From: Candidatus Woesearchaeota archaeon
GTDB taxonomy: Archaea > Nanobdellota > Nanobdellia > Pacearchaeales > GW2011-AR1
NCBI GenBank assembly: GCA_964467035.1
Contig: CAYXNX010000003.1
Coordinates: 21,252 to 85,251 of the forward strand
DNA length: 64,000 nt
Reading direction: 5' to 3'
The notes below the pieces were generated by a model. It was given only the letters and a program-made list of their open reading frames with translations, ran no database searches and had not been told where the DNA came from. The position numbers and the translations under genes are program-made. Each line of letters starts with the position of its first letter. Positions within the stretch are counted from its first letter, which is position 1. Below are positions 288-46,313 of this stretch, in pieces.

Positions 288-1250
288 ATGGCTATAAAAC
301 TGGATTTAAAAGACAAGAAGATATTGACTTTATTAGACGAAGATGCAAGACTTAGCAATAGTCAAATTGCTAAAAAAATTGGACTTTCAAAACCAGCAGT
401 TGAATATAGATTAAAGAGGTTTGAAAAAAATAATCTTATCTTTCAATATTATACAATTATAAATTTCACAAAATTAGGATATTCTCAATACAAAATCTAT
501 TTTAAGTTTCAAGACACAACTTTAGAAGATGAACAAAAAATAATCAATTATTGGAATAAATCCAATAATTCTGTTTGGGTTGCCCAAATTCGGGGAAGAT
601 GGGATTTAGCTGTTTCTGTAATAGCAAGATCAAACTTTGAATTTGGAAAAGTTTTAAGCGAATTTATGAACAAATTTTCAAAATTTATTCTAGAAAAAGA
701 TGTTCTACTGACTGAATATTCTCCTATTTACTCCAGAGAATATTTAACAGAAACAAAACCCTCTGAATTTGTTTATGGAGTTCCCTCTAAAATTTATGAG
801 TTAGACGAAACAGATAAAAGAATATTAAAAGAACTTTCAAAAAATGCACGAATTAATATTGTTGATTTAGCAGAAAAAACAAAACTATCAAGAGATATTA
901 TCAATTACAGGTTAAAAAAACTGACAAAAGAGAAAATCATTTTTCAATATAGATGTTACCTCAATCTTCAAAATTTGGGAGTAAATCATTACAAGATTAT
1001 TTTCAGAACAAAAAATCTTGATGAGCAATCTGAAAAAGAAATAAAATCTTATGTAACTCAACACAAAAAAGCAACCCAATTCTTAAAATTAATTGGCTCA
1101 TGGGATTTAGAAATTGAATTTGAAACAGAAAATGAAGATGAACTTTACAAAATTTTAACAGATATCCGAAAAAGATTTTTTAATATTATTAGGGATTTTG
1201 ATATTCTAAGGATAACTGAAACTTACAAATATGATTATTTCCCCTTCTAA
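288..1250 (+). CDS. Lrp/AsnC-family transcriptional regulator with two tandem HTH+RAM-like modules
   Basis: Two internal copies of the Lrp/AsnC HTH signature: DKKILTLLDEDARLSNSQIAKKIGLSKPAVEYRLKRF and DKRILKELSKNARINIVDLAEKTKLSRDIINYRLKKL. Confidence 0.8.
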   Translation: MAIKLDLKDKKILTLLDEDARLSNSQIAKKIGLSKPAVEYRLKRFEKNNLIFQYYTIINFTKLGYSQYKIYFKFQDTTLEDEQKIINYWNKSNNSVWVAQIRGRWDLAVSVIARSNFEFGKVLSEFMNKFSKFILEKDVLLTEYSPIYSREYLTETKPSEFVYGVPSKIYELDETDKRILKELSKNARINIVDLAEKTKLSRDIINYRLKKLTKEKIIFQYRCYLNLQNLGVNHYKIIFRTKNLDEQSEKEIKSYVTQHKKATQFLKLIGSWDLEIEFETENEDELYKILTDIRKRFFNIIRDFDILRITETYKYDYFPF

Positions 1251-1433
1251 AATGTTTTTTTTAGAAAAGAACCAAAACAAGACGCCCCTCTCTCTCTCGT
1301 CCTTCGGACATATTCACTCCCTACGGTCGAATTTATCAGTAATCCAAAAACTCTAAAATTTTCCTTCGGAACGTTGCACTAAATTTTAGGTCTTCCCGTT
1401 GGTCAGACGAAACTAACACCCCTTTAAGCCGAA

Positions 1434-1543
1434 TTTTGCTCCCCACATCCCTTCTATTGTCAAGACACCCCCAACGCAAAACTCACTCAAACAAATATAT
1501 GAAAAACTCGTGCCTCTCCAAGTATTCGAGGTCGATTAACACC
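1434..1543. repeat. Family A dispersed repeat, copy 1 (C-rich on + strand)
   Basis: 1434-1497 aligns at roughly 85% by eye with 2611-2664. 1480-1543 aligns at roughly 90% with 30886-30946, including a perfect 27-mer (1500-1526 = 30903-30929). A further shared motif, ccttcgg..ttgcactaaa, is at 1363-1387 and 2530-2550. Confidence 0.8.
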
Positions 1544-1814
1544 CCTTCAACGAAATTTCTAATTCTCCTAAAATCTTTAAGTAAAAAAATAGCTAAAATC
1601 TCTCTCAGACATCCCCCGACCAACTCACAACCTCGCACGGCTTATTTTATTCTTATTTACTGCCTACCACGAAGTTGCTCGCCCACCTCCGGTTACGAGG
1701 TGCGCGCCTGTCCTTCGGACATTTAGTTAAACCTCGTTTCAGATTTATTTAGAAATAATCTTTTTTCCGCCGCCCAATCAATAACTTAATAAATAACATA
1801 TAGAATTAATCTTC

Positions 1815-2414
1815 ATGAAAGACTATGTAAATCCTCACGTACATGATTGGATGTTTCTCCAAGGAAATCCTGTATTATTTGGAGAAGAAAGAAAAGGTTT
1901 ACAAAGATTTTTAGAAAGATGGGATGAGCAAGAAACGTTTTTTTATACAAGAGATTCGAAAAAAGACATAGATACTTTCCGAAGGCTAGTTCAAATGAAA
2001 GAGGTATTTATTAGGTCTTTTGGAGAAATAGATTATGGAGAAGATTCGGAATATATGAAAATTTATGTCCCTTTTCATTTTACTAAAACAGGTGAAAATC
2101 TAGACAATTTTTGTTTATTTGCATATGATGAATTATTGGATAAATATCCCCATAAAAAAATGGTTGATGCGTTAATGTTTATGAGAGATTGTATTCAAGA
2201 AGATTACGCCTTTTATACGCGAATCATTAAAGGGGATGAGGATTTGCTTGGTTCAGATTATATTTTTTTAAACGATCGGGAGAGGTCTTTTATGTACGCT
2301 TCGGATAGGGATGAATGCAGTGGAGGAACCCCCTATACTCGTTGTCGGTATTTTGATTCTCCAATTTGCGATAATTGTCGTTTTCCAAACAATCATTTAT
2401 TTGAAGAAAAATAA
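1815..2414 (+). CDS. hypothetical protein with a Cys-rich C-terminus (accessory ORF bracketed by Family A repeats)
   Basis: 199-aa ORF with no recognisable family. C-terminal CSGG..C.Y....CDNC cluster. Flanked by GC-rich repeat regions. Confidence 0.5.
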   Translation: MKDYVNPHVHDWMFLQGNPVLFGEERKGLQRFLERWDEQETFFYTRDSKKDIDTFRRLVQMKEVFIRSFGEIDYGEDSEYMKIYVPFHFTKTGENLDNFCLFAYDELLDKYPHKKMVDALMFMRDCIQEDYAFYTRIIKGDEDLLGSDYIFLNDRERSFMYASDRDECSGGTPYTRCRYFDSPICDNCRFPNNHLFEEK

Positions 2415-2446
2415 TATCCAATCCCTCCCAAAAAAGATTATTTCAT

Positions 2447-2469
2447 CTTCTTTCTTAAAAAGAAAGAAG
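2447..2469 (+). terminator. perfect 9-bp hairpin downstream of ORF 1815-2414
   Basis: cttctttct / taaaa / agaaagaag read directly, about 33 nt after the stop codon. Confidence 0.4.
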
Positions 2470-2529
2470 CAAAAAGCGACGACAAACCCCTAAGAAATAA
2501 AATATAGTGCCGACAACTTTGATTTTTTG

Positions 2530-2664
2530 CCTTCGGCATCATTGCACTAAAAATCAATCCCTCCAAGTATTCGGGAGAGTTGAACAGCGATTAATCAAAA
2601 TTTTGCTTCCTACAACCCTTCTATTCTCAAGACACCCTCAACGCAAAACTCACTTCAAATAAAT
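2530..2664. repeat. Family A dispersed repeat, copy 2 (circularly permuted relative to copy 1)
   Basis: Contains ccttcggcatcattgcactaaa, ctccaagtattcggg..gattaatc and ttttgcttcctacaacccttctattctcaagacaccctcaacgcaaaactcac. All three have counterparts in 1363-1543, but in a different order. Confidence 0.75.
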
Positions 2665-2725
2665 CCCAAAGAACATAGTTAAAAAGAATTGTAAGATTTA
2701 TTAACCTTGAATTCCATATAAGATT

Positions 2726-3631
2726 ATGGAAATAAATTTTCTTCAACTCTGGAGCTCAGAATACTTTAAGATTTTAATAAAATCAATTATTATAATTGTT
2801 ATTGCTTTATTTATTAATCTTTTATTTAAAAGATATTTTAAAAAAATAATTTCTCAACTAGAGAAAGGAAAACTTACCCAAGAAAAAAAATCAAGAAAAA
2901 CTCGAATTGAATTTTTTAAAACAATTATTTCTACATTTATAGTTATTTTAGCGTTACTCTCTATTTTAATGCTTATTCCAGGATTTAAAACATTTTCAGT
3001 TTCGTTGCTTGCAGGAGCAGGAATTGTAGCAATTGTAATTGGTTTTGCAGCACAAAAAACACTATCAAATATTGTGTCTGGTATTTCTATTGCAATTTTC
3101 ACTCCTTTTAGAATTGGAGATAGATTAAAAATTTTAGACGAATTTGGAGATGTTGAAGATATAAACTTAAGACACACAACTATCAAAACTTGGGATAATA
3201 GAAGAATAATAATCCCCAACTCATTAATTTCTGAAAAAGAAATAATTAACTACAGTATAAAAGAAGAAAGAATGATTTGGACAATAAACCTTGGAATAAG
3301 TTATGATTCAGATATAGATAAAGCAAAAAAAATTATGATAGACAAGGCAAAAAAACACCCCGATGTAATAATTCCTGAAATAAAAAATGAACAAGGAATT
3401 TTAGAAAAAAGAGAACCTTATGTCAGAGTTACTGAATGTGGAGACTTTGCTGTTAATTTAAGACTTTACTTTTGGGTAGATTCTCCTCTCAAATCTTGGC
3501 CAACTGGTTTTGACTTAATAGAACAAATTAAAAAAGAATTTGATAAGAAAGGAATTGAGATTCCTTTTCCATATAGCACAATTGTTTTTAAAAAAGATTT
3601 AGATGAGAAAAAGAAAAAAGATTCTTCTTAA
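2726..3631 (+). CDS. mscS: MscS-family mechanosensitive ion channel
   Basis: TM helices followed by the QKTLSNIVSGISIAIFTPFRIGDRLKI motif typical of MscS. Confidence 0.85.
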   Translation: MEINFLQLWSSEYFKILIKSIIIIVIALFINLLFKRYFKKIISQLEKGKLTQEKKSRKTRIEFFKTIISTFIVILALLSILMLIPGFKTFSVSLLAGAGIVAIVIGFAAQKTLSNIVSGISIAIFTPFRIGDRLKILDEFGDVEDINLRHTTIKTWDNRRIIIPNSLISEKEIINYSIKEERMIWTINLGISYDSDIDKAKKIMIDKAKKHPDVIIPEIKNEQGILEKREPYVRVTECGDFAVNLRLYFWVDSPLKSWPTGFDLIEQIKKEFDKKGIEIPFPYSTIVFKKDLDEKKKKDSS

Positions 3632-3633
3632 TT

Positions 3634-4272
3634 TTACTTTACAGCTTCTATTCTTTTAAATACATCAAACAGCATCAAGTTATCTTCTCTACTTATTTTT
3701 AATCCTGATTTTTTAATATTTTCAATTGTTTTTCTATCAATGTTAACTCCCAATAAAAATTTAGTTAAAGGGTTATGTATATGTTCAAAAATAGCTAGTA
3801 AAAGATGCTCACTCAACATATGTTCAATCATTAAAACTTTCCCAGAAGGTTTAACAACTCTTTTCATTTCTTCTAAAACTTTTATAGGATTTGGGACAGA
3901 ACATAAAACAAAAGTACATAAAACATAATCAAATTTGTTATCTTTAAATTCCATATTTTGAGCATCCATTTCTTTTAATTCAATATTTTTATTTCCTAGT
4001 TTATTCAATTCTAAATAAGCTTTACCTAACATACCGGGAGATATATCTATTCCAGTTACTTTTGCTTTTGAGTTATAATATTTTAAATTCTTTCCAGTTC
4101 CAACTCCCACTTCTAAAATATTTCCTTTTAAATCTTGAATCAGTTCTTTCCTTAGTTTATTTAAAACTCCTATTTCCATAGGTTTTTCAAAAAGATTATA
4201 AAACTTGGAAAATCTATCATATTTTCTCTTTACTTTATTTGTTTGGATTTCTAATGCAGTCTTTTTCTTCAT
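3634..4272 (-). CDS. class I SAM-dependent methyltransferase
   Basis: Motif I ILEVGVGTGKN, and later FDYVLCTFVLCSVP and KPSGKVLMIEH. Confidence 0.8.
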   Translation of the reverse strand: MKKKTALEIQTNKVKRKYDRFSKFYNLFEKPMEIGVLNKLRKELIQDLKGNILEVGVGTGKNLKYYNSKAKVTGIDISPGMLGKAYLELNKLGNKNIELKEMDAQNMEFKDNKFDYVLCTFVLCSVPNPIKVLEEMKRVVKPSGKVLMIEHMLSEHLLLAIFEHIHNPLTKFLLGVNIDRKTIENIKKSGLKISREDNLMLFDVFKRIEAVK

Positions 4273-4330
4273 TTTTTCTCAAATATACTTATAATTTAAT
4301 AAAAAAATAAAAATAAAAATAAATTTAAAC

Positions 4331-5032
4331 TTATGCTAATTCTGCATCAATTATTTGTTTAAACGCTGAAAATGGTTGAGCTCCACTAAGAGGTTTTCCA
4401 TTAATTATAAAGTAAGGTGTTCCTCTTCCTCCAGCAGCTTGTGCATCAGCAAGATCATTCTTTACTTCACTTAAATATTTTTCAGAATCTAAACATTCAT
4501 CAATATCATAACCAAGATCTTGTGACCATTTTTTCAAATTTGCTTTACTTAACGATTGTTGATTTGCAAAAATCACATCATGGTATTCAAAATAAATTTC
4601 ATCTCCTCCTTGTTCCCTTATACATTCCGCAGCTATCGCAGCAGGCGTAGCCATAGGATGAATACTATCTAAAGGAAAATCTCTATAGACAAAAGTCACC
4701 TGATCTCCATATTCAGCTAAAACCTGTTTTACAGTTCCAGAAGCTCTTGCACAAAAAGAACATTGAAAATCACTAAATTCAATAATTTCTACAGGAGCAT
4801 TAGGGTCTCCAATTCTTGCGTCATCATCAGCACTTGCACTTACAACACTTGGTTGGTTATCTCCACTAGGTTCACTAGGAGGATTGTTATTTGCAACAAC
4901 ATTTCCTTCTTTATTTCCTCCTAAAAAAACAATTCCTCCAATAACTAAAAGTGTAACTAAAACAAATGTGCTATACTTCCACAAATCTTGTTTATTCATT
5001 GTTATTGTATCACTTTCTTCCATCTTTTTCAT
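4331..5032 (-). CDS. membrane-anchored DsbA-like thiol:disulfide oxidoreductase
   Basis: N-terminal TM segment and thioredoxin-fold CxxC (FSDFQCSFCAR). C-terminal GTPYFIINGK is typical of the DsbA family. Confidence 0.75.
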   Translation of the reverse strand: MKKMEESDTITMNKQDLWKYSTFVLVTLLVIGGIVFLGGNKEGNVVANNNPPSEPSGDNQPSVVSASADDDARIGDPNAPVEIIEFSDFQCSFCARASGTVKQVLAEYGDQVTFVYRDFPLDSIHPMATPAAIAAECIREQGGDEIYFEYHDVIFANQQSLSKANLKKWSQDLGYDIDECLDSEKYLSEVKNDLADAQAAGGRGTPYFIINGKPLSGAQPFSAFKQIIDAELA

Positions 5033-5152
5033 TACCTCCTTTCATTCGATATGAGCGTTAGTGAATAGCGAATGAGAGAAGATCTTTTGATCTACTCTCA
5101 ATTGTTTGTTGAGCCTTTCAGGCGATTCAGACGATTGCGCAAAACCTTTGAT

Positions 5153-5731
5153 TTATTCTTCTCCAATATCTCTTTCTTTCCCTCTTAATTTAAATCTCGA
5201 ATTTTTACAAATAAACATATTTTCCCCAATATTAACAATTGTAAATCCTAAAAGTCCTATTGACAAAATTGAAATCTCTAAACCTTTGTAGGGTAAAAAA
5301 TTTAAAACACTTGCTCCAATCCCTAAAAATGAAATTAATCCAATACTGCAAGCACTACATCCTGGAACAAAAGCTCCTAAAAAAATACCTGCACTTCCAA
5401 AAATCCCTAATTTTTTATTATCAATTGATTTTCCAAGATTAATCTTATAGAAAATTAAACTAACTAAAATTCCAACTAACAAACTAATCAAAACTAAACT
5501 AATAAAAGAGTAAACCTCTACAGTTTTCCAAAAACTAGTTAAAAGGTTTAATCCAAATCCCATAGTTCCAAAAAAGCTCAATGTTGAGTAAAATTCCCAA
5601 GGTTTATTTCCTCCTGAGATAAAAACATTAATTAAATAAAAAATAAAACTTACAATTAAAAAAATTAATAAATATTTTTTATCTTTAAAAACAATTTTTA
5701 AATTTTGAAAAATTTGACTCTTTTTTTTCAT
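5153..5731 (-). CDS. polytopic membrane protein with intramembrane CxxC (GCSACS)
   Basis: About 5 hydrophobic segments; VPGCSACSIGL lies within one. Sits next to the DsbA-like gene. Confidence 0.5.
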   Translation of the reverse strand: MKKKSQIFQNLKIVFKDKKYLLIFLIVSFIFYLINVFISGGNKPWEFYSTLSFFGTMGFGLNLLTSFWKTVEVYSFISLVLISLLVGILVSLIFYKINLGKSIDNKKLGIFGSAGIFLGAFVPGCSACSIGLISFLGIGASVLNFLPYKGLEISILSIGLLGFTIVNIGENMFICKNSRFKLRGKERDIGEE

Positions 5732-5828
5732 CCAAAAATATTTAAAATAAACTATAAAGTCTTAGCGTCTGAACAAAAGCATTTAGAAACCCTAAAACTA
5801 CTAAATTTAACTCTTTAAACGTTCATAC

Positions 5829-6326
5829 TTACAATTTAAGAAAAATTTGCATTGTTTTTCCTTTTCTAACTCTCTTTATTAAATTTCTTTTTTCTAAATC
5901 CTGAAGAATATAACTTAACTTAGCTTTAGACATATCTGTCTTAATCCTCAAAGTACTTTGAGTAATTCCTTCTTGTTCCTTAACTTTTTTCAAAACTCGT
6001 GCCTCACTGGGATCTAAAAATTTAAGCGCAAAATCAAATTTGCCATTTTCAATACTTTCCTTTTTTTCATTCTCTAATTTCTCCAAAATAATTTTATCTG
6101 TTTTATTAAAAAACAAAAGATAAAAACCTAAAGCAAAAACAAAAGCAAATATTCCTATTGCAAAATGTGAAACACTTAATTTCCTCTCAATCTCAATACA
6201 ATTAGGATTATTAAAACAACCTATTTTGTCAGATTTATCAACTAAACTATCAACCAAATACATAAACATTCCCCCAATTAATAGAGAAATTACAATCAAT
6301 AAAATACCTAACTTTTTATTTTCCAT
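5829..6326 (-). CDS. membrane-anchored winged-helix (MarR/ArsR-like) regulator
   Basis: Two TM segments with a CFNNPNC loop, then ARVLKKVKEQEGITQSTLRIKTDMSKAKLSYILQDLEKRNLIKRV (wHTH). Confidence 0.6.
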   Translation of the reverse strand: MENKKLGILLIVISLLIGGMFMYLVDSLVDKSDKIGCFNNPNCIEIERKLSVSHFAIGIFAFVFALGFYLLFFNKTDKIILEKLENEKKESIENGKFDFALKFLDPSEARVLKKVKEQEGITQSTLRIKTDMSKAKLSYILQDLEKRNLIKRVRKGKTMQIFLKL

Positions 6327-6384
6327 AATTATATGAAATATTCTTCATATTTAAACTTTATTTATTTCAAAATTTTGTAGAAAA

Positions 6385-6393
6385 CTTTATAAA
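6385..6393 (+). promoter_or_regulatory. TATA box (ctttataaa) about 21 nt upstream of the ATG at 6415
   Basis: Matches the recurrent AAAnnTTTATAAA element seen about 20-26 nt upstream of many start codons in this window. Confidence 0.45.
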
Positions 6394-6414
6394 CCTCTAA
6401 TAAAGAAAAAGTAA

Positions 6415-6771
6415 ATGACAAGTTCTATTAAAGACAGATTAAAAGGAATAATTCATCAAGAATTTCAAAGAGATCATCCCACAGATAGAACTATAAAAAA
6501 CTGTTTACACGACGATTATAAAAAAATTGTTTCTAAAATTAGGTCTAGTCAAAATTTGCTTCAGGATGAAAGAGAATTTGCTTTAAATTGTTTTAATAAA
6601 ATCTTGGACGTATATCCTATGCATTTAGAGGGAAATCCCTCTCAAGAAAATTCACATTTAGATGAAATTCCCTTAAATGATTATTCAAATTTGCTCCATA
6701 CAATTTCAAGATTACAAGATTATAATTATTCTGAAAGAACAAATTCTTGGACTTATTCAAAAAATATATAA
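6415..6771 (+). CDS. hypothetical protein
   Basis: 118-aa ORF with a promoter-like box upstream. No recognisable family. Confidence 0.4.
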   Translation: MTSSIKDRLKGIIHQEFQRDHPTDRTIKNCLHDDYKKIVSKIRSSQNLLQDEREFALNCFNKILDVYPMHLEGNPSQENSHLDEIPLNDYSNLLHTISRLQDYNYSERTNSWTYSKNI

Positions 6772-6808
6772 ACTTTAATCGAAATTTAAGTTTAGGACTT
6801 ATTCTAAA

Positions 6809-9385
6809 ATGACTCAAATCAGACAATCTATAGAACGAAAAGGTCAAGATATAGTTAAAACTCTTAATCCTCTTGTAAAAGAATGGTTTTTTTCAAAATT
6901 CGAAGATTTTTCCCAAACTCAAAAATACGGAGTTCCAGCAATTTGGGAACGGAAAAACATCCTAATTTCAGCTCCAACTGGGGGGACAAAAACACTTACT
7001 GCTTTTTTATCAATTTTAAATTACCTTGTCGGGTTAGCAGAAAAGAACCAATTAGAAAATAGAGTTTATGCAATATATACTTCTCCTCTTAAGGCTTTAA
7101 GCAATGATATTCATAAAAATTTAGAAGAACCATTACAAGAAATAAATGAACTAGCAAAATCAAAAGGAATCAAACTTCAAGAAATTCGTGTAGGTTTAAG
7201 AACAGGAGACACAACTACTTCTGAAAGAGCTAAAATGGCTCGGAAACCACCCCATATTTTTATAACAACTCCTGAATCTTTGGCAATAATTCTAACCTCA
7301 AAAAAGTTTGTCGAATATTTAAGGATGATAGAATTTTGCATTGTAGATGAAATCCATTCCTTAGATAATAAAAGGGGAACTTATTTAAGTATAACTCTAG
7401 AACGTTTAAATGAAGTCAGTAAAATCTGGCCTGTCAAGATAGGACTTTCAGCAACAATCTCTCCTCTAGAAGAAGTTGCAAAATTTCTTGTAGGAATATC
7501 AGAAGAAAGAACAGTTGAAATTGCTAAGGTTCCATTAAATAAAAAAATAGATGCCAAAGTTTTAACTCCTTCTAAAAATCTAATTGAAGACAAAGAAATT
7601 TATCTGAATATGTATGAACTTATAGATCAGCTAATACAAGAACACAAATCAACTCTAATTTTTACAAATACTCGAGCTGGCACTGAAAGAGTTGTAAGTC
7701 ATTTAAAAGAAAAATTCCCTCTTGTTTATGGAGACGATAATATCGCAGCACACCACTCTTCTTTAAGCAAATCTTTAAGATACAACATCGAAGAAAGATT
7801 AAGAAATGGAGAACTGAAAGTTGTTGTTTGTTCAACATCTCTAGAATTAGGAATTGATATTGGTTTTATTGATTTAGTTCTTATGTTGGGTTCTCCTAAA
7901 AGTTCAGCCAGAGCACTGCAAAGACTTGGGAGAGCAGGTCATCAACTCCACAACATTGCTAAGGGACGTTTTGTAGTTTTAGATAGAGATGATTTGGTTG
8001 AATGTTCAGTAATCCAAAAAGAGATGATTGAAAAAAAAATTGATACAGTAAGATTTCCAAAAAATTCTTTAGATGTTTTGTCCCAACAAATTTATGGAAT
8101 GGCTATTTATCGACAGTGGGACATAAATGAAGTCTTCAACCTAATCAAGAAGTCATATTGTTTTTTTGGACTTTCAAAAAATGATTTTTTTGATGTAATA
8201 AGTTATCTAGCTGGAGAATATGCTTTAGAAAAAAATAATGTTTATGGAAAAATTTGGTATGATGAAGAAACCCAAATGATTGGAAAAAAAGGGAAATTAG
8301 CAAGGGTTATTTATCTCACAAATTTGGGAACAATTCCAAGTGAAAGTTTTGTTAATGTAAAACTTTCTTCAGGAGAAAAAATTGGAGCAATTGATGAAGG
8401 ATTTTTAGAAAGAATGAAAAAAGGAGATGTCTTTGTTTTGGGTGGTTCAAGATATGAATACAAATATGTTCGAGGAATGAATATTTATGTAACTCCTTCC
8501 ACTCGCTCCCCAACAATCCCCTCTTGGTTTTCAGAAGCTCTACCCCTAAGCTTTGATTCAGCTTTAGAAATAAATAATTTAAGAACTAACTTATGTGAAA
8601 AATTTAATAGTGGAGAATCAAAAAAATCAATTTTGAATTATCTCAAAAAACAGCTCTATATTCCAGATTCAACAGCACAATCCATTTACCAATATTTTAA
8701 GGAACAACATAAATTTTTCAAAATTCCACACTCACAAAAAATTCTAATTGAAAAATACAAAGGAGAAAAAAATTATCTTTTAATCCATAGTATGTTTGGC
8801 CGAAGAGTAAATGACGCACTTTCCAGAGCTTTGGGTTATTTAATGGCACAGGCTGGTGGGCGAGACATTGAAATCGGAATAAATGATAATGGATTTTATT
8901 TTGCAGGGGAAAAACTCCAAATTGAAAAAGCATTTGAATTTCTTAATTCAAAAAATATTAGAGAAGTTTTAACAGAAGCAATTGAAAAAACAGATATTTT
9001 AGCGCGAAGATTCCGCCACTGTGCTACTCGTTCTTTAATGATTCTTAAAACTTATAAAGGTCAGGAAAAATCAGTTGGGAAACAACAAATGAAGAGCCAT
9101 TTTCTTTTAGCTGCAGTTCGTAAAGTCTCAAACAAATTTCCTATTCTAAATGAAGCTAGGCGTGAAGTTTTAGAAGATGTTATGGAAATTGATAATGCAA
9201 AAAAAGTTTTAGAAATGATTGGAACAAAAAAAGTTAAAATTGAAATTCAAACAGTAACACTCCCCAGCCCATTTGCCCTTAATTTAATAATTCAGGGTCA
9301 TATGGATTTGATAAAAATTGAAGACAAACAGAAATTTCTAAAAAGGATGCACGATTTGCATATGAAAGCAGTTGGAAAAAAATGA
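6809..9385 (+). CDS. lhr: Lhr-type ATP-dependent DEXH-box helicase
   Basis: Walker A SAPTGGTKTL, DEIH box (CIVDEIHSL), SAT (LSATI), helicase C motifs and a long Lhr-like C-terminal extension. Confidence 0.85.
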   Translation: MTQIRQSIERKGQDIVKTLNPLVKEWFFSKFEDFSQTQKYGVPAIWERKNILISAPTGGTKTLTAFLSILNYLVGLAEKNQLENRVYAIYTSPLKALSNDIHKNLEEPLQEINELAKSKGIKLQEIRVGLRTGDTTTSERAKMARKPPHIFITTPESLAIILTSKKFVEYLRMIEFCIVDEIHSLDNKRGTYLSITLERLNEVSKIWPVKIGLSATISPLEEVAKFLVGISEERTVEIAKVPLNKKIDAKVLTPSKNLIEDKEIYLNMYELIDQLIQEHKSTLIFTNTRAGTERVVSHLKEKFPLVYGDDNIAAHHSSLSKSLRYNIEERLRNGELKVVVCSTSLELGIDIGFIDLVLMLGSPKSSARALQRLGRAGHQLHNIAKGRFVVLDRDDLVECSVIQKEMIEKKIDTVRFPKNSLDVLSQQIYGMAIYRQWDINEVFNLIKKSYCFFGLSKNDFFDVISYLAGEYALEKNNVYGKIWYDEETQMIGKKGKLARVIYLTNLGTIPSESFVNVKLSSGEKIGAIDEGFLERMKKGDVFVLGGSRYEYKYVRGMNIYVTPSTRSPTIPSWFSEALPLSFDSALEINNLRTNLCEKFNSGESKKSILNYLKKQLYIPDSTAQSIYQYFKEQHKFFKIPHSQKILIEKYKGEKNYLLIHSMFGRRVNDALSRALGYLMAQAGGRDIEIGINDNGFYFAGEKLQIEKAFEFLNSKNIREVLTEAIEKTDILARRFRHCATRSLMILKTYKGQEKSVGKQQMKSHFLLAAVRKVSNKFPILNEARREVLEDVMEIDNAKKVLEMIGTKKVKIEIQTVTLPSPFALNLIIQGHMDLIKIEDKQKFLKRMHDLHMKAVGKK

Positions 9386-12725: not shown

Positions 12726-13121
12726 ATGGAAAAAAACAAAAAACACCTGATAATTTTCTGCATTTCTTTATTAGCATCATTTATATTTTGGAGACTTTTA
12801 GTAATTCTCAAAGCAGGAGAAATCAGTATTTTAAGAGATATCACCGGCCTAAACATCCATCATTATCATTATGGGATTCTCATAATTTTTATAGCAGTTT
12901 TATTCTTTATTTTTAGACATCCTGAAAAATATTCGATAGCTTTAACAGGAATTGGATTTGGAACTTACTTTGACGGATTCCTCTCAAGATTATTTTCAAG
13001 CTCATCAAGATACCAAGAAGTCACAAATTACTCAAACTTATTTTTTCCCACACTTTTACTTTTAGCAATTCTCTGCTTAATTGCAGGAGGATTTTATATA
13101 CTCTTTAGAGAAAAAACTTAA
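12726..13121 (+). CDS. hypothetical integral membrane protein
   Basis: Four hydrophobic segments. Confidence 0.5.
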   Translation: MEKNKKHLIIFCISLLASFIFWRLLVILKAGEISILRDITGLNIHHYHYGILIIFIAVLFFIFRHPEKYSIALTGIGFGTYFDGFLSRLFSSSSRYQEVTNYSNLFFPTLLLLAILCLIAGGFYILFREKT

Positions 13122-13146
13122 TAAATCTTTTTTTGTTTTAATATTT

Positions 13147-13584
13147 ATGAAAAAGAGGAAATTTATAGGAATATTTTTAACCCTTTTAGGAATTGTTCTA
13201 ATTATTAATTCATCAGCAAATATTTTGGGTGCATCAATAGGAATAAAAGAAATATCTGTAAATCTCGGATTAGTTTTAGGATTTGCTTTTTTAGTCGTTG
13301 GAATTTATTTAGGTTTTGCGCAAAGTCGTGAAGGAGAAAATAACAGAAGAATTATCAGGGAGAAAGGTTTTGAAAAATCAATCAAAAGAATTAAAGGAGA
13401 GGAATTAAAAAAAGTTGAAGACACAATTGAAAAAATTAAAAACGGACAAGGAAAAACAGAAAAATTAAGTCATCTTCCAGGATATTCAATTCGTGTAACA
13501 AAAGAAGCAAGAATAAGATTTGATATAGATCCTAATGGAAATTACCATTTAGAAAAATATGAACCACATCATGATTATAGATAA
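13147..13584 (+). CDS. membrane-anchored protein with RelE/ParE-like C-terminal domain
   Basis: Start chosen at MKKRKFIGIF. Two TM helices, then FEKSIKRIKGEELKKVEDTIEKIKNG..EKLSHLPGYSIRVTKEARIRFDI, which resembles the RelE/ParE core. Confidence 0.4.
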   Translation: MKKRKFIGIFLTLLGIVLIINSSANILGASIGIKEISVNLGLVLGFAFLVVGIYLGFAQSREGENNRRIIREKGFEKSIKRIKGEELKKVEDTIEKIKNGQGKTEKLSHLPGYSIRVTKEARIRFDIDPNGNYHLEKYEPHHDYR

Positions 13585-13929
13585 TTAATCCACGATTCCA
13601 ATTTGTTGGTCACATAAAGCACAATTAATTGTCTCCAATCCAAATCTCTTCCTGGTTAAAACAACAGTTTCTCTTTCTAAATAATCTTGTAATGTGTCTA
13701 CATAATTTTCATTTGCTCTATCAAGCTCACAAATTCTATCTCTATAATCTTCCCAATACCCCAAATCCTCGTCTCGAATTTCAGAACAATCAGCATCAAT
13801 AAAAAAATCTTCACATTCTTTTTCCAACTTTTCAACTTTTCTTCGTTTATCATAAAGCTTTTGCAGTTCCGGACATTCGCAATAACCATTTTCCTTCTCT
13901 AATTCTAAAACATAATCTTCTCTATTCAT
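13585..13929 (-). CDS. hypothetical acidic Cys-rich protein
   Basis: ATG start at MNREDYV chosen over the TTG start of the ORF track. CECPE...CEDFF..DCSE...CALCDQ. Confidence 0.45.
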   Translation of the reverse strand: MNREDYVLELEKENGYCECPELQKLYDKRRKVEKLEKECEDFFIDADCSEIRDEDLGYWEDYRDRICELDRANENYVDTLQDYLERETVVLTRKRFGLETINCALCDQQIGIVD

Positions 13930-27949: not shown

Positions 27950-28333
27950 TATTTAAATTTATCGTTATCTAAAAATTATGCTCCCACCAGACATATATCA
28001 CTCCCTAAAAGGATTACATCTCTTTCTTCTTGATTTATCTTTTAATTACCATTTTGTCTCATTAAGAAGTTTTGTCCATCTCTGAAGTGTTCTTTTCCTT
28101 ACCTCAACAAATTTGGAGAAAATAATTTTTCTACACTGATTTTGTAATCCATATGAACCGCCATTTATAAATTATAAATTTAATTATATTCTAAAGATTT
28201 CTTTTTTAACATGTCTGATGGACTGGAATTGCCCTCTTTTTCTAAAAGAACATTAAACTTAAACTAAATTGCAACCAACATCGGGCTTAAAAGAAGTTTA
28301 ATTTACTCTAAAAAATCCTCCTCGTGAAACAAA

Positions 28334-28413
28334 GCTGATAATTTTTTCAGAGCTGGGGCGAAATTTTGGGAAATCATCCAGTTTGAGATTTCCTCTTTAT
28401 CTTCTGTTCAACG
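28334..28413. repeat. Family B structured hairpin repeat, copy B1
   Basis: gctgataa...ctgttcaacg outer arms and ggaaatc/gatttcc apical stem. 28341-28375 is identical to 47457-47491 (35 nt). Flanking homology to 47375-47456 begins near 28267. Confidence 0.8.
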
Positions 28414-28506
28414 ACCCAATCTGATAGGCGAGAATGCAACATTCTGAAGTAAAATTTTAGGCGAGGGCTCTGTTTTTAATCTTTTTATGAAGCAAAGTTT
28501 TGTTAT

Positions 28507-29154
28507 TTATCTTAACATTTTACCAACATATTGTGTTGTAGCTAAATTTTCAAGAGCGATAGTGTAAACCATCTCACTATGTAATCTTCCCATATCCATA
28601 GGGTTGACTCCAAGTTTGAATTGGACAGTTCTAATTCCTTCTTCTGCTTTTCCTTCACAAAGCAAGAGATATAAACCATCCCCAATTTCCCGAGGTTCTG
28701 CCACCCCATGTTCAGATTCATTTCCAAATTGATTAAGAAACTCTTTTGTTGGAATAATCTTTCCAGTCATTCCTTCTAAAGTAGATAAATATCTTTTAAG
28801 AGGTTCATTTTGAACGGTGTTTCTTACCATATTTGATATGTTCGGAGTTCTATGCCAAAAAACATCTGGTTCAGATTTTCTACTTCTTTGCTCAACTAAT
28901 TTTTCATAGATATGTCCATCAGAATGGGCATAGTCTTGTTTTTGTGGATTTGATTTAAAATAGGCAACTACTTCTTTCGGAACATTTGTTTCTTCTAATA
29001 ATCGTCCACTATTGTGTCCACCCCTTACACTATCTGGAACTTCCTCTGGCTTTATGGTAGAGACAGACAAAATTTGCATTAAAGGATAGTCTCTAAACCC
29101 TCTTATTTCTCTATCACAACAAGGACACTTTTCGTTTGGTTTTTGTTCTGACAT
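28507..29154 (-). CDS. hypothetical protein (accessory ORF in island 1)
   Basis: 215-aa ORF with N-terminal CPCC. No recognisable family. Long leader with GGAG 9 nt before the ATG. Confidence 0.55.
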   Translation of the reverse strand: MSEQKPNEKCPCCDREIRGFRDYPLMQILSVSTIKPEEVPDSVRGGHNSGRLLEETNVPKEVVAYFKSNPQKQDYAHSDGHIYEKLVEQRSRKSEPDVFWHRTPNISNMVRNTVQNEPLKRYLSTLEGMTGKIIPTKEFLNQFGNESEHGVAEPREIGDGLYLLLCEGKAEEGIRTVQFKLGVNPMDMGRLHSEMVYTIALENLATTQYVGKMLR

Positions 29155-29309
29155 TTTTAATCTCCAAATCTCTAAGAAAACTTAGAGGTTTATCCTTCAC
29201 CTCTTAATAATTAGAAATAAAGGGTAGTTTATAAATTTTTGCCCATTTTGAGTAACTGCTGAAGGCAGACTATATGTGCGTAAGCACTGCCCGAGCCCAA
29301 AATTTTATT

Positions 29310-29395
29310 GCTGATAACACTGGAATTTAACGAAGTTTTGCCGTAGAAAAAATTTGGGAAAATCCTGCAGGATTTTCTGTTTAAGCCCTGTTATG
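29310..29395. repeat. Family B structured hairpin repeat, copy B3
   Basis: gctgataac ... gttatg outer boxes. Perfect 20-nt palindrome gaaaatcctgcaggattttc at 29358-29377. The downstream segment 29397-29467 is homologous to 47530-47583. Confidence 0.75.
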
Positions 29396-29562
29396 TCTTC
29401 CGAGGTCTTTAACACGAGAGCCTGCAAGGCGTGGCACGAGCAGAACGAACGAAGTGACCTCGTGAGTTTCCAATCTCCGAAAATTCGTTGTTATCGTAGT
29501 TGTCAGAGAATTATTTTGAATTTGCCGAAAATTTTAAAAATAGAGAACATCTTCTTTTTTGT

Positions 29563-30036: not shown

Positions 30037-30072
30037 GGCTTTTATTCTCTGACAGGCTTTTATTCTCTGACA
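30037..30072. repeat. perfect 18-nt tandem duplication (ggcttttattctctgaca x2)
   Basis: Read directly: 30037-30054 = 30055-30072. Confidence 0.9.
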
Positions 30073-30761: not shown

Positions 30762-30885
30762 AAAAAAATTATTTATTGTATATTTAAATCTCTTTCTATT
30801 TTTAACTATGACTTCTTAACTTCTCACTTCATTCGTCGGCAGATTTAACACCTCTTAACCAAAATTACTCATTTCATTCGCAACC

Positions 30886-30946
30886 CACTTCAAACAAATA
30901 TCTGAAAAACTCGTGCCTCTCCAAGTATTTGGGTTAGATTAACACA
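30886..30946. repeat. Family A dispersed repeat, solo copy 3
   Basis: cacttcaaacaaatatctgaaaaactcgtgcctctccaagtatttgggttagattaacaca aligns with 1480-1543. Enclosed by cattcgc (30874-30880) / gcgaata (30947-30953). Confidence 0.8.
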
Positions 30947-31084
30947 GGCGAATACTCCTTTATTCTAAGTTTAAAGTATTCTTTTCTTATTTCTTCTTTT
31001 TTCATACAAAACCGAAGAATCTATCTCCGAACTATTTTTTGATTTTGCCTAGTGACATATGTCCACCTTGCTATACACATTATC

Positions 31085-42671: not shown

Positions 42672-42789
42672 GGCTCGAATCAAACGCTCCAAGCAGGATT
42701 CGATCCTGTATGTTGAGTTTACGAAACATCCGCAACAAAGTGAGGACAAAGGTTCGAATCAAACTCTCCAAGCAGGATTCCATCCTATA
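42672..42789. repeat. tandem tRNA-T-arm-like repeats abutting the 3' end of tRNA-Gln (79-nt period)
   Basis: 42672-42710 and 42751-42789 match at 35/39 positions (ggYtcgaatcaaacKctccaagcaggattcSatcctRta). The core caggattcga resembles the tRNA-Gln T-arm at 42801-42816. A third related copy is at 41812-41830. Confidence 0.7.
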
Positions 42790-42791
42790 AA

Positions 42792-42864
42792 TAGCCCGTC
42801 CAGGATTCGAACCTGGGTCAGCTGGCCCAGAACCAGCTATACTTGACCACTGTACTAACGGGCT
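42792..42864 (-). tRNA. tRNA-Gln (anticodon CUG), no intron
   Basis: AGCCCGUUAGUACAGUGGUCAAGUAUAGCUGGUUCUGGGCCAGCUGACCCAGGUUCGAAUCCUGGACGGGCUA folds into a full cloverleaf. A1-U72 is typical of archaeal tRNA-Gln. Confidence 0.85.
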
Positions 42865-45379: not shown

Positions 45380-45472
45380 AGCCACTGACGGGACTTGAAC
45401 CCGTGACCTCGTCATTTTTGATATTATCATAGTACCAATGACGCGCTCTATCCTAAACTGAGCTACAGCGGC
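45380..45472 (-). tRNA. tRNA-Thr (anticodon GGU) with an intron of about 17 nt at 37/38
   Basis: GCCGCUGUAGCUCAGUUUAGGAUAGAGCGCGUCAUUGGUA[CUAUGAUAAUAUCAAAA]AUGACGAGGUCACGGGUUCAAGUCCCGUCAGUGGC. All four stems pair. Exact splice points are approximate. Confidence 0.8.
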
Positions 45473-45887: not shown

Positions 45888-46110
45888 ATTCCAAATTAGG
45901 GTGTTTTTATCATTTTCATTTTTTCAAGAATTAAGCATCTTGAGGTGCTAACACCTCTAAAAAAAGATATATAAACAGATATATAAATTTAATTGAAACG
46001 AAGTTTCAGCTATCTAATTTTCGATAGAAAAATTGCGCGCGCTTCTTTGGGTGGGAATTATCAATTAGAGATTTAAATTTTTAGCCCTCTTTCTCAATTG
46101 CAATTAACAT

Positions 46111-46184
46111 CGGAATTTAGCGAAGTCGTGAGCGTAGCGAACGATTTTGGAAAATGCGAGCCGAGCATTTTTCCGTTAAATTCC
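46111..46184. repeat. Family B structured hairpin repeat, copy B4
   Basis: Outer stem cggaatttagcg / ccgttaaattcc. Inner stem ggaaaatgc / gcatttttcc. Shares ggaatttaRcgaagt and gcgtag motifs with 29321-29346. Confidence 0.75.
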
Positions 46185-46313
46185 TATTATATTCGTTTTT
46201 CCCAGTAAAAACCTGGGCCAAAGTGAAACGGTTTTTGCGAAGGAAGCACCATTAGTTAAAAGAATAAAGGGCAGGGATTCATTAATTTACTACTATTTAA
46301 TTACTATATAACA

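Follow-up and report, generated by a model that had tools for sequence, protein, structure and literature searches.

An Orphan Archaeal Gene as a Probable Cassette in an Integron-like Array Bounded by a Structured Repeat

Results

Genes and Features of the ORF199 Locus

In the window (the whole 64-kb stretch of DNA that was analysed), the orphan gene ORF199 lies between the genes for a two-domain Lrp/AsnC-type regulator and an MscS-type channel, and the spacer on each side of it holds a copy of one structured element. A second orphan, ORF215, is flanked by copies of the same element on the opposite strand. The features to which the text refers are as follows.

288..1250, + strand: two-domain Lrp/AsnC-type regulator gene (Pfam HTH_24 and HTH_AsnC, each twice)
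1251..1349, + strand: tail modules of the Lrp-bearing segment (direct reading)
1350..1418, + strand: element copy 1, conserved 5' domain (model R1 match 1342-1437, 72.4 bits, E 1e-12)
1424..1487, + strand: C-rich block, copy 1, "Family A" of the first-pass annotation (88% identical to 2591-2654)
1488..1545, + strand: linker and remnant of a second copy, with the P3-like hairpin CCTCTCCAAGTATTCGAGG and GATTAACA (89-91% identical to 30882-30945)
1546..1814, + strand: leader modules of the putative ORF199 cassette (such modules recur at cassette starts elsewhere)
1815..2414, + strand: ORF199, orphan 199-aa gene, probable cassette cargo (Cys-rich C-terminus: C168, C177, C185, C188)
2415..2515, + strand: tail modules of the putative ORF199 cassette (complementary arms; recurrence elsewhere)
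2516..2586, + strand: element copy 2, 5' domain (R1 match 2508-2604, 61.8 bits, E 1.5e-10)
2587..2665, + strand: P5-like GCGATTAATC and C-rich block, copy 2 (comparison with locus L122)
2726..3631, + strand: MscS-type mechanosensitive channel gene, first gene beyond copy 2 (Pfam MS_channel_2nd and MS_channel_3rd)
28265..29475, - strand: second example in the window, with element copies at 29304-29475 and 28265-28464 (R1, 39.4 and 16.7 bits)
28507-29154, - strand: orphan ORF215, bracketed by these two copies (no Pfam family)
46094..46264, - strand: full-length element copy ending in ..CCGATGTTAATTGCAAT (R1, 56.8 bits, E 1.5e-9)

The description of ORF199 as a Cys-rich orphan held: the protein has 6 Cys in all, four of them within the last 32 residues, and a Pfam search assigned it to no family. 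A clustered-protein search (5.8 billion) returned ORF199 itself only, exhaustive HMMER searching gave two repeat-like partial matches and no homolog, and an AlphaFold2 model built without an alignment was uninformative (pLDDT 36). ORF215 has a single homolog, at 56% identity, which is not flanked by the element. The spacer upstream of ORF199 (1251-1814) is GC-richer than its surroundings, as had been noted, with a GC content of 0.40 (GC skew -0.40) vs. 0.29 for the window as a whole.

Both spacers are built of short modules that recur at other loci. Immediately after the Lrp stop codon lie a degenerate AT hairpin, a GTCCTTCGGAC hairpin (1299-1309), a second hairpin and the 5' flank AGTAATCCAAAA; these tail modules recur in L007, L037, and L044, and AT hairpins 3' of the Lrp stop codon were also seen in L120, L124, and L128. 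The leader of ORF199 comprises CATCCCCCGACC (1610-1621), a GC-rich hairpin, GTCCTTCGGAC (1710-1720) and a further hairpin, followed by GAAATAATCTTTTTT (1752-1766) and the TATA-like AACTTAATAAATA (1783-1795), which appears promoter-like on the basis of its sequence. In L120, L128, L077, and L115, cassettes begin with the inverted repeat and then show leader modules of this type, and positions 1536-1803 reach high depth in unrelated metagenomes. The recurrence of gtccttcggacat recorded in the first-pass annotation is correct for 1299-1311, while its second site is 1710-1722 and not 1719-1731. Downstream of ORF199, the tail consists of AAAAAAGATTATTTC (2430-2444), an AT hairpin (2446-2469), CAAAAAGCGACGACAAACCCC (2470-2490) and the 5' flank ATAGTGCCGACA, and tail modules of this type recur in L017, L028, L084, and others. 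AAAAAAGATTATTTC and GAAATAATCTTTTTT (1752-1766) form 15-nt arms that are 100% complementary and bracket ORF199; at the element borders themselves, no inverted repeat specific to the ORF199 cassette was found. In contigs from three metagenomes, ~1766-1777 is joined directly to ~2423-2439, and gene-less copies therefore exist elsewhere. These joints are too short for assignment to a locus, and no recombination event, circular cassette or empty-site allele was observed at the ORF199 locus.

Element Copies in the Window

Alignment of 1344-1496 with 2510-2664 (blastn against the 64-kb window) gave 72% identity over 156 nt (E 1e-20), and 1424-1487 and 2591-2654 form a direct repeat of 64 nt, 88% identical and on the same strand. 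The same-strand repeat previously drawn from 1434-1486 is thus real, with its partner at 2601-2653 instead of 2611-2662, a displacement of ~10 nt. These two 64-nt stretches differ at 8 positions (G>T, C>A, G>A, C>T, C>T, T>A, G>C, and C>T), and since the changes are not confined to adenine, the template and variable repeats of a diversity-generating retroelement were rejected. Two further blocks are indeed shared in differing order, namely ccttcgg..ttgcactaaa (1363-1383 and 2530-2550) and ctccaagtattcg..gattaa (1516-1542 and 2561-2595), the latter with a third copy at 30882-30945 (89-91% identical). What had been taken for circularly permuted tandem units is the remnant of a second copy, made up of stem P3 and GATTAACA (1508-1542); the P3 form TCCAAGTATTC is frequent among canonical copies.

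Copy 1 consists of ACT (1350-1352), stem P1 (1353-1362 with 1381-1389), the P2 hairpin (1361-1371), CGTTGCACT (1372-1380), the P3 hairpin (1390-1408) and the invariant GAAACTAACA (1409-1418), and contigs at least 98% identical to its 5' domain occur at ~30x single-copy depth in the source metagenome. Copy 2 has the same order: ACT (2516-2518), P1 (2519-2527 with 2549-2557), P2 (2528-2538), cATTGCACT (2540-2548), P3 (2558-2576) and a degenerate junction, GAGTTGAACA (2577-2586). Its A2541 is G in nearly all other copies (1164/1172, 1497/1530, and 9804/9838 depth units), and it is truncated, since the closing 3' strands are missing. Both copies flanking ORF199 keep the conserved 5' domain and carry a C-rich inner domain. 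This 64-nt block, the Family A of the first-pass annotation, is not the conserved core of the element but an internal domain specific to the lineage, standing in place of the canonical three-way junction in the element's 3' half: it is absent from unrelated metagenomes (zero depth over 1424-1487 in X5 and X11) and was found again in L122 (8220-8310), where it is closed by TTTTTAATCTC-GA-TGTTA-ATTCA. The conserved core is the adjacent ACT..CGTTGCACTAAA..GAAACTAACA part. The mini-hairpins described as ttcgg-tipped are real; by direct reading, they are C-TTC-G triloops on in-register stems and not UUCG tetraloops. Across the element, all hairpin loops are C-TTC-G or C-TAC-G triloops, which on the opposite strand correspond to GNA triloops, known as stable DNA mini-hairpins.

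Distribution and Fold of the Element Family

Exact 23-27-mers of the window copies were absent from the genome-contig and metagenome-contig collections, so a degenerate core pattern was needed to find relatives. The pattern CGTTGCACTAAA-N(10-40)-AACTAACA occurs in at least 119 species genomes, almost all from Woese-/Pace-/Nanoarchaeota, which bears out the proposal of a dispersed family and makes that family far bigger than supposed; model R1 recovered 143 copies in 618 kb of motif-matching loci. Unrelated-metagenome contigs cover the spacers to a depth of up to ~6000x and leave ORF199 and its flanking genes uncovered.

The element is a folded site of 170-260 nt. Its 5' part runs from ACT through stem P1, enclosing the P2 hairpin and the invariant CGTTGCACT, to hairpin P3, and its 3' part from the invariant GAAACTAACA, the 5' strand of P4, through stem P5 and a variable inner domain to the 3' strands of P5 and P4, which end in ...GA-TGTTAnnnnCAAT. 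Nothing in attC corresponds to the large conserved 5' domain (P1-P3, CGTTGCACTAAA). Compensatory changes were found at 23 of the 38 pairs in 20 hand-picked copies. Across the 143 copies, 34/38 pairs had changed on both sides and 90.9% of cells were paired, compared with 70.4% in shuffles (0/500 reach 90.9%) and 36-56% in a register-shift control, in which pairing partners were moved out of register. Because the long-range stems covary, the folding itself appears to be selected. A single copy treated as ssDNA folds into the same helices, with z-scores of -3.6 and -3.9 for the two strands.

Gene Arrays and Cassette Borders

All 32 loci with at least two copies carry them on a single strand, and adjacent copies are co-oriented in 46/46 pairs, with 33 of these 46 gaps measuring 163-1134 nt. 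Replication-direction bias of the IS200/IS605 type was rejected as the cause of this co-orientation: GC3 skew is uniform over the 64 kb, which forms one strand domain, yet element copies of the window occur on either strand, and no Orc1/Cdc6 gene separates them. Relative to neighbouring genes, the orientation of the element is random (61/57 upstream, 57/55 downstream, and 26/22 for genes within gaps).

In 19 of 29 pairs of neighbouring copies, the 14-nt flank after CAAT is complementary, at 11 or more of the 14 positions, to the 14-nt flank that precedes the next copy's ACT, compared with 1.6% of random pairs, while flanks belonging to the same copy pair in only 3/55. A closing stem formed by both flanks of a single copy was accordingly rejected, the pairing spanning the gene between neighbouring copies. 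The border layout is thus ...CAAT/IR-gene-IR'/ACT..., in which the inverted repeat abuts the element ends and belongs to the gene segment. In co-directional arrays, the element begins 10-20 nt past a stop codon and extends almost to the following promoter-like box. The genes carried are small and diverse, comprising accessory enzymes and proteins of unknown function, with no transposase among them.

Close relatives whose Lrp gene is 94-96% identical (loci L120-L130) carry different genes, or none, behind it. The Lrp ortholog is followed by element, ORF85, element, ORF162, and element in L128 (96%), by an element in L120 (95%), by an NTase/HEPN pair and then a C-block element in L122 (94%), and by a truncated site and then eIF-1A in L124 (94%); no element copy was found behind it in L130 (95%). 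The outcomes that the first-pass annotation had named as refuting its reading did not arise: no known RNA matches, other copies occur, and relatives differ in presence or absence. The idea of that annotation that the direct repeats resemble att sites is retained insofar as an element resembling a recombination site brackets single-gene cassettes and is linked to a tyrosine recombinase. The repeats are not the attL/attR pair of one insertion, because copies also separate cassettes elsewhere in the window and in relatives.

A Tyrosine Recombinase Heads the Arrays

A gene for a XerA-type tyrosine recombinase is ~20-fold enriched beside the element, occurring in 15-18 of 119 motif-picked loci, whereas each of ten housekeeping controls occurs in 0-2. 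Its geometry is fixed: in 19/19 loci it lies 5' of all 27 copies and on the opposite strand, that is, upstream and divergent. A minimal site, consisting of a hairpin and TGTTAnnnnCAAT, lies 34-414 nt from the recombinase start, and its inverted-repeat partner abuts the first full element; linkage breaks at or just 5' of TGTT. In the relatives, the Lrp gene lies within the first cassette, beside the recombinase, the order in L120 and L128 being recombinase, minimal site, gene(s) including Lrp, and then the first full element. The 64-kb window contains no recombinase gene. Element copies also occur distant from any recombinase, amid housekeeping genes (window 28-47 kb).

The recombinases are 257-281 aa long and score best with a XerA model. 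Of five tested, L079, L001, and L082 (246, 241, and 236 bits) exceed the XerA equivalog cutoff of NF040815 (220), and L120 and L085 (182 and 170 bits) fall below it. Scores with the integron-integrase models are 158-210 bits for TIGR02249 (cutoff 265) and 100-131 for NF011946 (cutoff 435), and the nearest solved structures are PaXerA (4a8e) and TaXerA (5hxy). The enzyme has no IntI-specific domain and, with 3/5 above the equivalog cutoff, could be no more than the housekeeping XerA.

Discussion

Taken together, these results suggest, with a probability of about 0.7, that the ORF199 stretch is the proximal part of an integron-like gene-cassette array in a DPANN archaeon (class Nanoarchaeia: Woese-/Pacearchaeota), that ORF199 is a gene cassette in this array, and that the element is an attC-like recombination site, probably folded as a single strand. 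We infer the recombination of cassettes, the pairing of enzyme and site, single-strand folding and the strand used. In the mechanism that we propose, the folded site would be the substrate of the XerA-family recombinase, encoded divergently at the array head beside the minimal hairpin and TGTTAnnnnCAAT site, with exchange at or just 5' of TGTT. Integration of a circular cassette, which carries one element and is closed by the inverted repeat flanking it, would take place at a resident element, so that the gene comes to lie within its inverted repeat and between two co-oriented element copies. ORF199, with its own leader, promoter-like and tail modules, would be one such cassette.

A structured non-coding RNA family, which the first-pass annotation had offered as its alternative to att sites, would make the element a small-RNA gene or a UTR or terminator element whose fold acts in RNA, for example in stabilisation, processing or protein binding. 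Strong covariation, invariant unpaired nucleotides, the placement of the element between stop codon and promoter-like box in co-directional arrays, and its presence in metatranscriptome contigs (unstranded and of low depth) are all consistent with such a role, as is one base pair that is G-U in 61/88 copies and works only on the C-rich strand. The remaining pairs, however, show no excess of G-U (77) over A-C (130), and the C-TTC-G/C-TAC-G triloops become GNA mini-hairpins of DNA on the other strand. Since orientation is random relative to the flanking genes, the element is no consistent UTR, and an independent small-RNA gene with a TATA box at a fixed distance was rejected because no conserved promoter box lies upstream of ACT (information <0.3 bit). 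The cassette inverted repeats lie upstream of promoter-like boxes, outside the cassette mRNAs, and therefore make sense only at the DNA level; an RNA role would also leave the recombinase linkage and fixed geometry unaccounted for. The proposed Rfam search returned no known RNA: with Rfam 15, the window gave only two tRNAs at gathering score, positions 1200-2750 nothing plausible at E up to 10, and canonical copies in L084 and L001 nothing at E up to 1. On balance we hold an RNA family to be unlikely.

The element could also be a selfish repeat of the REP/REPIN or MITE kind, mobilised as ssDNA in trans by a Y1 (IS200/RAYT-type) transposase, with neighbouring genes as bystanders and co-orientation arising from the insertion mechanism. 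The hairpin-rich architecture, the high copy number (~30 near-identical 5' domains, judged against single-copy depth) and the variable presence among relatives would all fit, and K07491 (REP-associated tyrosine transposase) is reported to be the sole transposase KO that gives strict matches among 256 Nanobdellota proteomes (preprint 10.64898/2026.05.13.725050). A search with an IS608 TnpA sequence over 873 kb of loci and the window, which is a weak test, returned no Y1 transposase. Moreover, element orientation does not track the strand domain, the inverted repeats are cassette-specific and bracket the gene and not the element, the reverse of MITE/REPIN geometry, and the gene enriched beside the element encodes an Xer/integrase-family tyrosine recombinase and not a Y1 enzyme, all of which makes a selfish repeat very unlikely.

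Most improbable, in our view, are Xer-exploiting duplex modules (similar to IMEX or pdif modules), in which housekeeping XerA would act on a dif-like duplex core with the fold as an accessory, or homologous recombination would shuffle the copies: the XerA-like scores, the adjacency of arrays to the recombinase gene and the report that PaXerA binds stem-loop att sites as well as dif (review PMC8371274) speak for them, but no 11-6-11 duplex palindrome was read by eye around TGTTAnnnnCAAT, the box halves GAAACTAACA and TGTTAGTTTC lie 10 to >150 nt apart and meet only in the folded strand, covariation of the long-range stems indicates selection on folding itself, and all element sites are co-oriented where pdif sites alternate.

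Beyond ORF199 as a cassette, we would give slightly better than even odds to the broader proposal that Woese-/Pacearchaeota (DPANN) possess a platform for gene capture that has so far gone unrecognised, is analogous to integrons, may have arisen independently, and combines a XerA-family enzyme without an IntI domain, a four-way-junction ssDNA site and single-gene cassettes. Under this proposal, the platform would be a main route of gene flux in tiny DPANN genomes, the conserved 5' domain would be an accessory arm that sets the architecture, and cassettes would be inserted and excised by the cell, bringing their own promoters and terminal inverted repeats to a large, sequence-conserved site. 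DPANN archaea combine minimal genomes and dependence on hosts or communities with wide exchange of genes, although the mobile elements known from them are few. If true, a widespread cassette platform would provide a concrete mechanism for their accessory-gene turnover and explain gene-by-gene differences among close relatives at fixed loci; it would further imply that a plain Xer-type recombinase can serve as the basis for gene capture of the integron type, which bears on the origin of IntI from Xer ancestors. The element also explains many contig breaks in metagenome-assembled DPANN genomes, serves as a sequence tag for finding cassette genes in metagenomes, many of them orphans like ORF199, and with its recombinase constitutes a compact candidate recombinase/site pair.

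Comparison with Known Systems

REP/BIME/REPIN repeats with their RAYT enzymes, and MITEs, resemble the element as short, structured, high-copy intergenic repeats with covarying hairpins that break short-read assemblies. The element differs in being much longer and multi-helix, in having co-oriented and not inverted neighbours, in inverted repeats that bracket a gene and not the repeat, and in an enzyme of the Xer/integrase family. REP repeats and MITEs are characterised by a palindrome or terminal inverted repeats of their own, a Y1 or DDE transposase partner and, in MITEs, a target-site duplication; in the element, same-copy flanks are complementary in only 3/55, and the weak Y1 search gave no match.

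The CTX phage, an IMEX, presents a folded ssDNA attP that mimics a recombinase site and is used by XerCD, while pdif modules of Acinetobacter plasmids have sites of alternating orientation. As in these systems, a recombinase of the chromosome-dimer-resolvase type would have been co-opted for insertion, and successive insertions would give arrays bounded by repeated sites. In contrast, the element sites are all co-oriented, no duplex dif-like 11-6-11 core was seen in them, the units are single cellular genes and not phage or plasmid genomes, and the arrays lie beside the recombinase gene. Archaeal dif is a single site with two 11-nt inverted arms and a 6-nt spacer, acting as duplex DNA (PMC8371274); the recombinase linked to the element is likewise of XerA type, but the element is multi-copy and, by eye, has no contiguous 11-6-11 palindrome.

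Integrons have been described from archaea (Ghaly et al., 2022; PMC9668308), and the element motifs were absent from the supplements of that study that were searched. No description of the element was found in the literature searched, and an integron-like system with the element as its site is apparently undescribed. Relative to integrons, the recombinase (257-281 aa) is XerA-like, scores below the integron-integrase cutoff and falls outside the IntI subfamily. Whereas attC is an imperfect palindrome of 57-141 nt with R''/R' and L''/L' boxes, extrahelical bases and little conservation, the element, at 170-260 nt, has two to four times that length, shows strong sequence conservation between species, and is extended by the 5' domain (P1-P3 with CGTTGCACTAAA). 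Furthermore, cassettes come with individual terminal inverted repeats, with leader and tail modules and apparently with promoters of their own, their genes can point either way, and copies or small clusters also occur distant from recombinases.

As in integrons, a divergent tyrosine recombinase heads an array of co-oriented structured sites with single small accessory genes between them, and a simpler primary site adjoins the recombinase, here with a matching cassette inverted repeat. The P4/P5 stem with its 2-nt bulge forms two ~10-bp boxes that resemble the R and L boxes of folded attC: the outer box, (A)AACTAAC...GTTAGTT, is close to R''/R' (RYYYAAC/GTTRRRY), with AACTAAC/GTTAGTT one position off the consensus and GTTAAAC variants fitting it, and is followed by the bulge, the 10-bp P5 as second box, and a terminal structure of variable length. 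Integrons recombine the folded bottom strand at G/TT; in the element, the linkage break lies at or just 5' of TGTT, the GNA-type triloops are on the G-rich strand, and the sites are directed away from the recombinase.

Layout of the locus and extent of the repeat family

The 64-nt C-rich direct repeats that the first-pass annotation placed on either side of an orphan gene (ORF199, 199 aa) are real and well past chance, with 88% identity between 1424-1487 and 2591-2654 and an E-value of 1e-20 for the wider pair 1344-1496 and 2510-2664. Two positions originally reported were about 10 nt off, gtccttcggacat lying at 1710 and not 1719 and the second repeat at 2601-2653, while Pfam and protein searches bear out ORF199 as a true orphan. 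The locus comprises:

288-1250, Lrp/AsnC-type gene, left neighbour
C-rich spacer of 564 nt (GC 0.40, skew -0.40) between Lrp and ORF199
1815-2414, ORF199
second spacer of 311 nt between ORF199 and MscS
2726-3631, MscS gene, right neighbour

The window (GC 29%) is archaeal, since it encodes FEN1, family-B DNA polymerase, RFC and a tRNA-Tyr (45380-45472) whose length of 93 nt presumably reflects an intron; close homologs of the Lrp-like protein were found in metagenome-assembled genomes of Woesearchaeota and Nanoarchaeia. Two 39-nt tRNA-like fragments (42672-42710 and 42751-42789, 90% identical) precede tRNA-Gln (42792-42864, -) and might mark past integrations at this tRNA gene. At 30037-30072 the 18-nt unit GGCTTTTATTCTCTGACA is perfectly duplicated in tandem.

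Each repeat lies within a structured element of 170-260 nt that runs from ACT to CAAT (copy 1 from 1350, copy 2 from 2516), with a third, partial copy at 30882-30945. The proposed dispersed family proved very large, but the C-rich 64-nt block itself has coverage in the source study only. Contigs of unrelated metagenomes, from groundwater, hydrothermal vents and mats, reach depths up to thousands-fold over 1268-1468, 1536-1803 and 2407-2607 and leave ORF199, Lrp and MscS uncovered; several fuse ~1766-1777 directly to ~2423-2439, so the spacers are contiguous without the gene elsewhere. The conserved parts of the repeats are ccttcgg..CGTTGCACTAAA and GAAACTAACA, and the pattern CGTTGCACTAAA-N(10-40)-AACTAACA occurred in at least 119 loci when one genome per species was scanned, a strict motif that biases the loci towards canonical copies. 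Nearly all matches listed are Woese-, Pace- or Nanoarchaeota, with a few labelled as other archaea or as bacteria; L014 (Legionella), L064 (Flavobacterium) and L086 look like chance matches without surrounding element sequence. Genomes assembled from metagenomes are fragmentary, the element being itself a cause of assembly breaks. The 21 kb examined of a 1.3-Mb Nanoarchaeia genome (L127) held no element copy, and thus some lineages may lack the family; that locus has a 5.4-kb stretch without called genes (1367-6834), which may be an rRNA region, and a LAGLIDADG endonuclease gene (12941-13672) about 6 kb beyond it.

Element anatomy and fold

Anatomy of the element, 5' to 3', from 20 canonical copies aligned over ~170 positions
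5' start: ACT, then stem P1
P1: TTGATTTT/AAAATCAA, with variants that covary; it encloses triloop hairpin P2 and invariant CGTTGCACT
P3: hairpin, then invariant GAAACTAACA
P4: stem UAACA/UGUUA, extendable to GAAACTAACA/TGTTAGTTTC
P5: stem of ~10 bp with a GA bulge on its 3' side
Inner 3' part: three-way junction with P6/P7 (loop TTGCA), CCCAAAT, length-variable hairpin P8, ACTTC
3' end: ...GA-TGTTAnnnnCAAT, beyond which conservation ends abruptly

RNAalifold analysis of the 20 canonical copies gave 38 pairs, with compensatory changes in 23. Across 143 copies, in an alignment fitted to the model, 90.9% of cells were paired as compared with 70.4% after shuffling (0/500 reached the observed value) and 36-56% when partners were shifted out of register, with both-sided change in 34/38 pairs; a hand-made alignment already gives the same picture. 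A single copy folded with DNA parameters forms the same helices (z -3.6 for the top strand, -3.9 for the bottom strand). In short forms the 5' domain is kept, and of the 3' domain only a small P4 hairpin is left. Window copies 1 and 2 likewise retain the 5' domain (72 and 62 bits with model R1, whose E-values are rough) and carry the C-rich block in place of the inner 3' domain; in a relative, L122, this block is properly closed by the P5/P4 3' strands. The block at 1508-1542, initially taken for a circularly permuted repeat, is instead a P3-plus-junction remnant of another copy. A fragment at 30780-30960 (+), flanked by FEN1 and a P-loop kinase-like gene (both -), has a P3-like hairpin besides two GATTTAACA-type junction motifs and is 89-91% identical to 1480-1542.

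A role as structured RNA was weighed against one at the DNA level. The Rfam search for a known RNA, suggested at the outset, returned no family matching the element, whether in the window or in canonical copies; no promoter-like box stands at a fixed distance 5' of ACT, and metatranscriptome contigs with the element have low depth, continue into the flanks and lack strand information. A-C mismatches (130) are about as frequent as G-U pairs (138, of which 61 come from one pair). All small hairpins are C-TTC-G or C-TAC-G triloops with stems in register, reading C-GAA-G and C-GTA-G on the G-rich strand, and these are GNA mini-hairpin motifs known for DNA. Element orientation is independent of flanking genes, as judged from counts of same and opposite orientation upstream (61/57), downstream (57/55) and for genes inside gaps (26/22). 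The mismatch counts, the hairpins, the orientation, the lack of a promoter-like box at a fixed distance and the array architecture together favour a DNA-level role, the case for an RNA role being weaker, although the element may also be transcribed.

Array architecture and cassette borders

All copies shared one strand in 32/32 loci with two or more copies, 46/46 adjacent pairs were co-oriented, and 33/46 gaps measured 163-1134 nt, approximately one small gene. A replication effect does not explain the co-orientation, as the window is one GC3-skew strand domain and yet has copies on both strands, (+) at 1.3 and 2.5 kb and (-) at 28-47 kb. GC3 skew on the coding strand over 1-64000 is very unequal, -0.15 for + genes versus +0.59 for - genes, and uniform in all four quarters, indicating one domain of composition, probably related to replication, in which the + strand is C-rich.

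Complementarity between both flanks of one copy was rare (3/55). The 14 nt after CAAT paired with the 14 nt before the next ACT in 19/29 pairs versus 1.6% at random, perfectly (14/14) in five, and the sequence of this inverted repeat (IR and IR') changes from gap to gap. A gap therefore reads CAAT, IR, then leader modules, promoter-like box, gene and tail modules, then IR' and ACT. A circle of gene plus one element, closed by IR'/IR, would integrate by crossover inside a resident element and give this topology. Copies from different genomes with a common downstream flank are identical at the family-variable nnnn of TGTTAnnnnCAAT in 88-100%, and identity falls to 50-80% directly 5' of TGTT in 16 such pairs, which locates the break in linkage at TGTT or immediately 5' of it; which strand is used and exactly where the element site is cleaved are points that we infer.

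The cargo is varied, comprising unknowns and small enzymes (NUDIX, cupin, isochorismatase, LD-carboxypeptidase, methyltransferases, metallophosphoesterase, NYN, NTase, GATase and C5 DNA methylase), and no transposase was found among it. Elsewhere in the window, further genes lie beside copies:

28507-29154 (-), ORF215, bracketed by (-) copies at 29304-29475 and 28265-28464 (degenerate); no Pfam family and a single homolog (56% identity) without a flanking element
46350-47342 (+), gene bracketed by a full copy, 46094-46264 (-), and a 3' half ending CGATGTTAAACTCAAT at ~47381-47396 (-); also flanked by the inverted repeat GAATCCCTGCCC at ~46.28 kb (-) and 47.345 kb (+)
47449-47491 and 28333-28375, 95% identical, reverse complement of the canonical P8 region

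A linked tyrosine recombinase

Homologs of a tyrosine recombinase first spotted near Lrp in the relative L120 were detected in 15 of the 119 motif-picked loci by phmmer and in 18 by jackhmmer; ten housekeeping controls occur in 0-2 loci each. In 19/19 loci all 27 element copies lie 5' of the recombinase gene on the opposite strand, the nearest at 112-6062 nt. The protein is XerA-type (NF040815, 170-246 bits, 3/5 tested above cutoff); integron-integrase models scored below cutoff, and the structures closest to it are PaXerA and TaXerA, followed by IntI4. At 34-414 nt from the start codon of the recombinase there is a minimal site, consisting of a short hairpin and then TGTTAnnnnCAAT. A 13-nt inverted repeat comes immediately after this site, and its complement borders the ACT with which the first full element opens (L001, L034, L038, L046, L051, L057, L082, L085, L054, L120 and L128). 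The array-side recombinase genes of L092 (3041-3487), L047, L054 and L108 are truncated (~110-150 aa matched), through either locus ends or decay; a truncated recombinase beside an array would mean an array that no longer has a working one.

The Lrp locus in relatives

Comparison of relatives, as the first-pass annotation had proposed, showed that Lrp orthologs with 94-96% identity occupy differing contexts, and hence that cassette content behind one gene varies among close relatives:

L128 (96%): recombinase (cut by contig end), minimal site, CGTGAGCCA, MutS-like gene, Lrp, TGGCTCACG abutting ACT, element 1, TTGAGATTTGGGC, ORF85, GCTCAAATCTCAA, element 2, ORF162, element 3
L120 (95%): recombinase, minimal site, ORF146, Lrp, element, contig end
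L122/L123 (94%): Lrp, NTase/HEPN pair, C-block-type element
L124 (94%): Lrp tail modules up to ACGACTTTAATTTTTT, then unrelated sequence and eIF-1A
L130 (95%): no element copy found

Toxin-antitoxin-type genes, which are typical integron-cassette cargo, occur in the variable region behind the Lrp orthologs of L122 (7006-8041, NTP_transf_2/HEPN pair) and L130 (2752-3147, PemK).

The Lrp-ORF199-MscS stretch matches the head of such an array, with the recombinase presumably left of the window start. ORF199 has leader modules (CATCCCCCGACC.., GTCCTTCGGAC hairpins and a TATA-like AACTTAATAAATA) and tail modules (an AT hairpin and CAAAAAGCGACGAC..CCCC) as in cassettes elsewhere. Because no IR pair is recognisable at its element borders and copy 2 is truncated, this cassette may be old or immobile.

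Comparison with integrons

The comparative evidence, on which the whole case is built, suggests that this archaeal system functions like an integron, with putative recombination; the element is undescribed in the literature searched. Canonical archaeal integrons were reported in 75/6718 genomes, among them a total of six IntIs with only few attCs in some Woese-/Pacearchaeales genomes (PMC9668308). As in integrons, where the integrase stands first, the recombinase and a primary site are followed by cassettes with co-oriented folded sites directed away from it. In contrast to integrons, the recombinase is not of the defining integron-integrase type, the element site differs in size and sequence conservation and has an extra 5' domain, the cassettes carry their own inverted repeats and promoter-like boxes with cargo genes in either orientation, and the element also occurs in scattered clusters distant from the recombinase.
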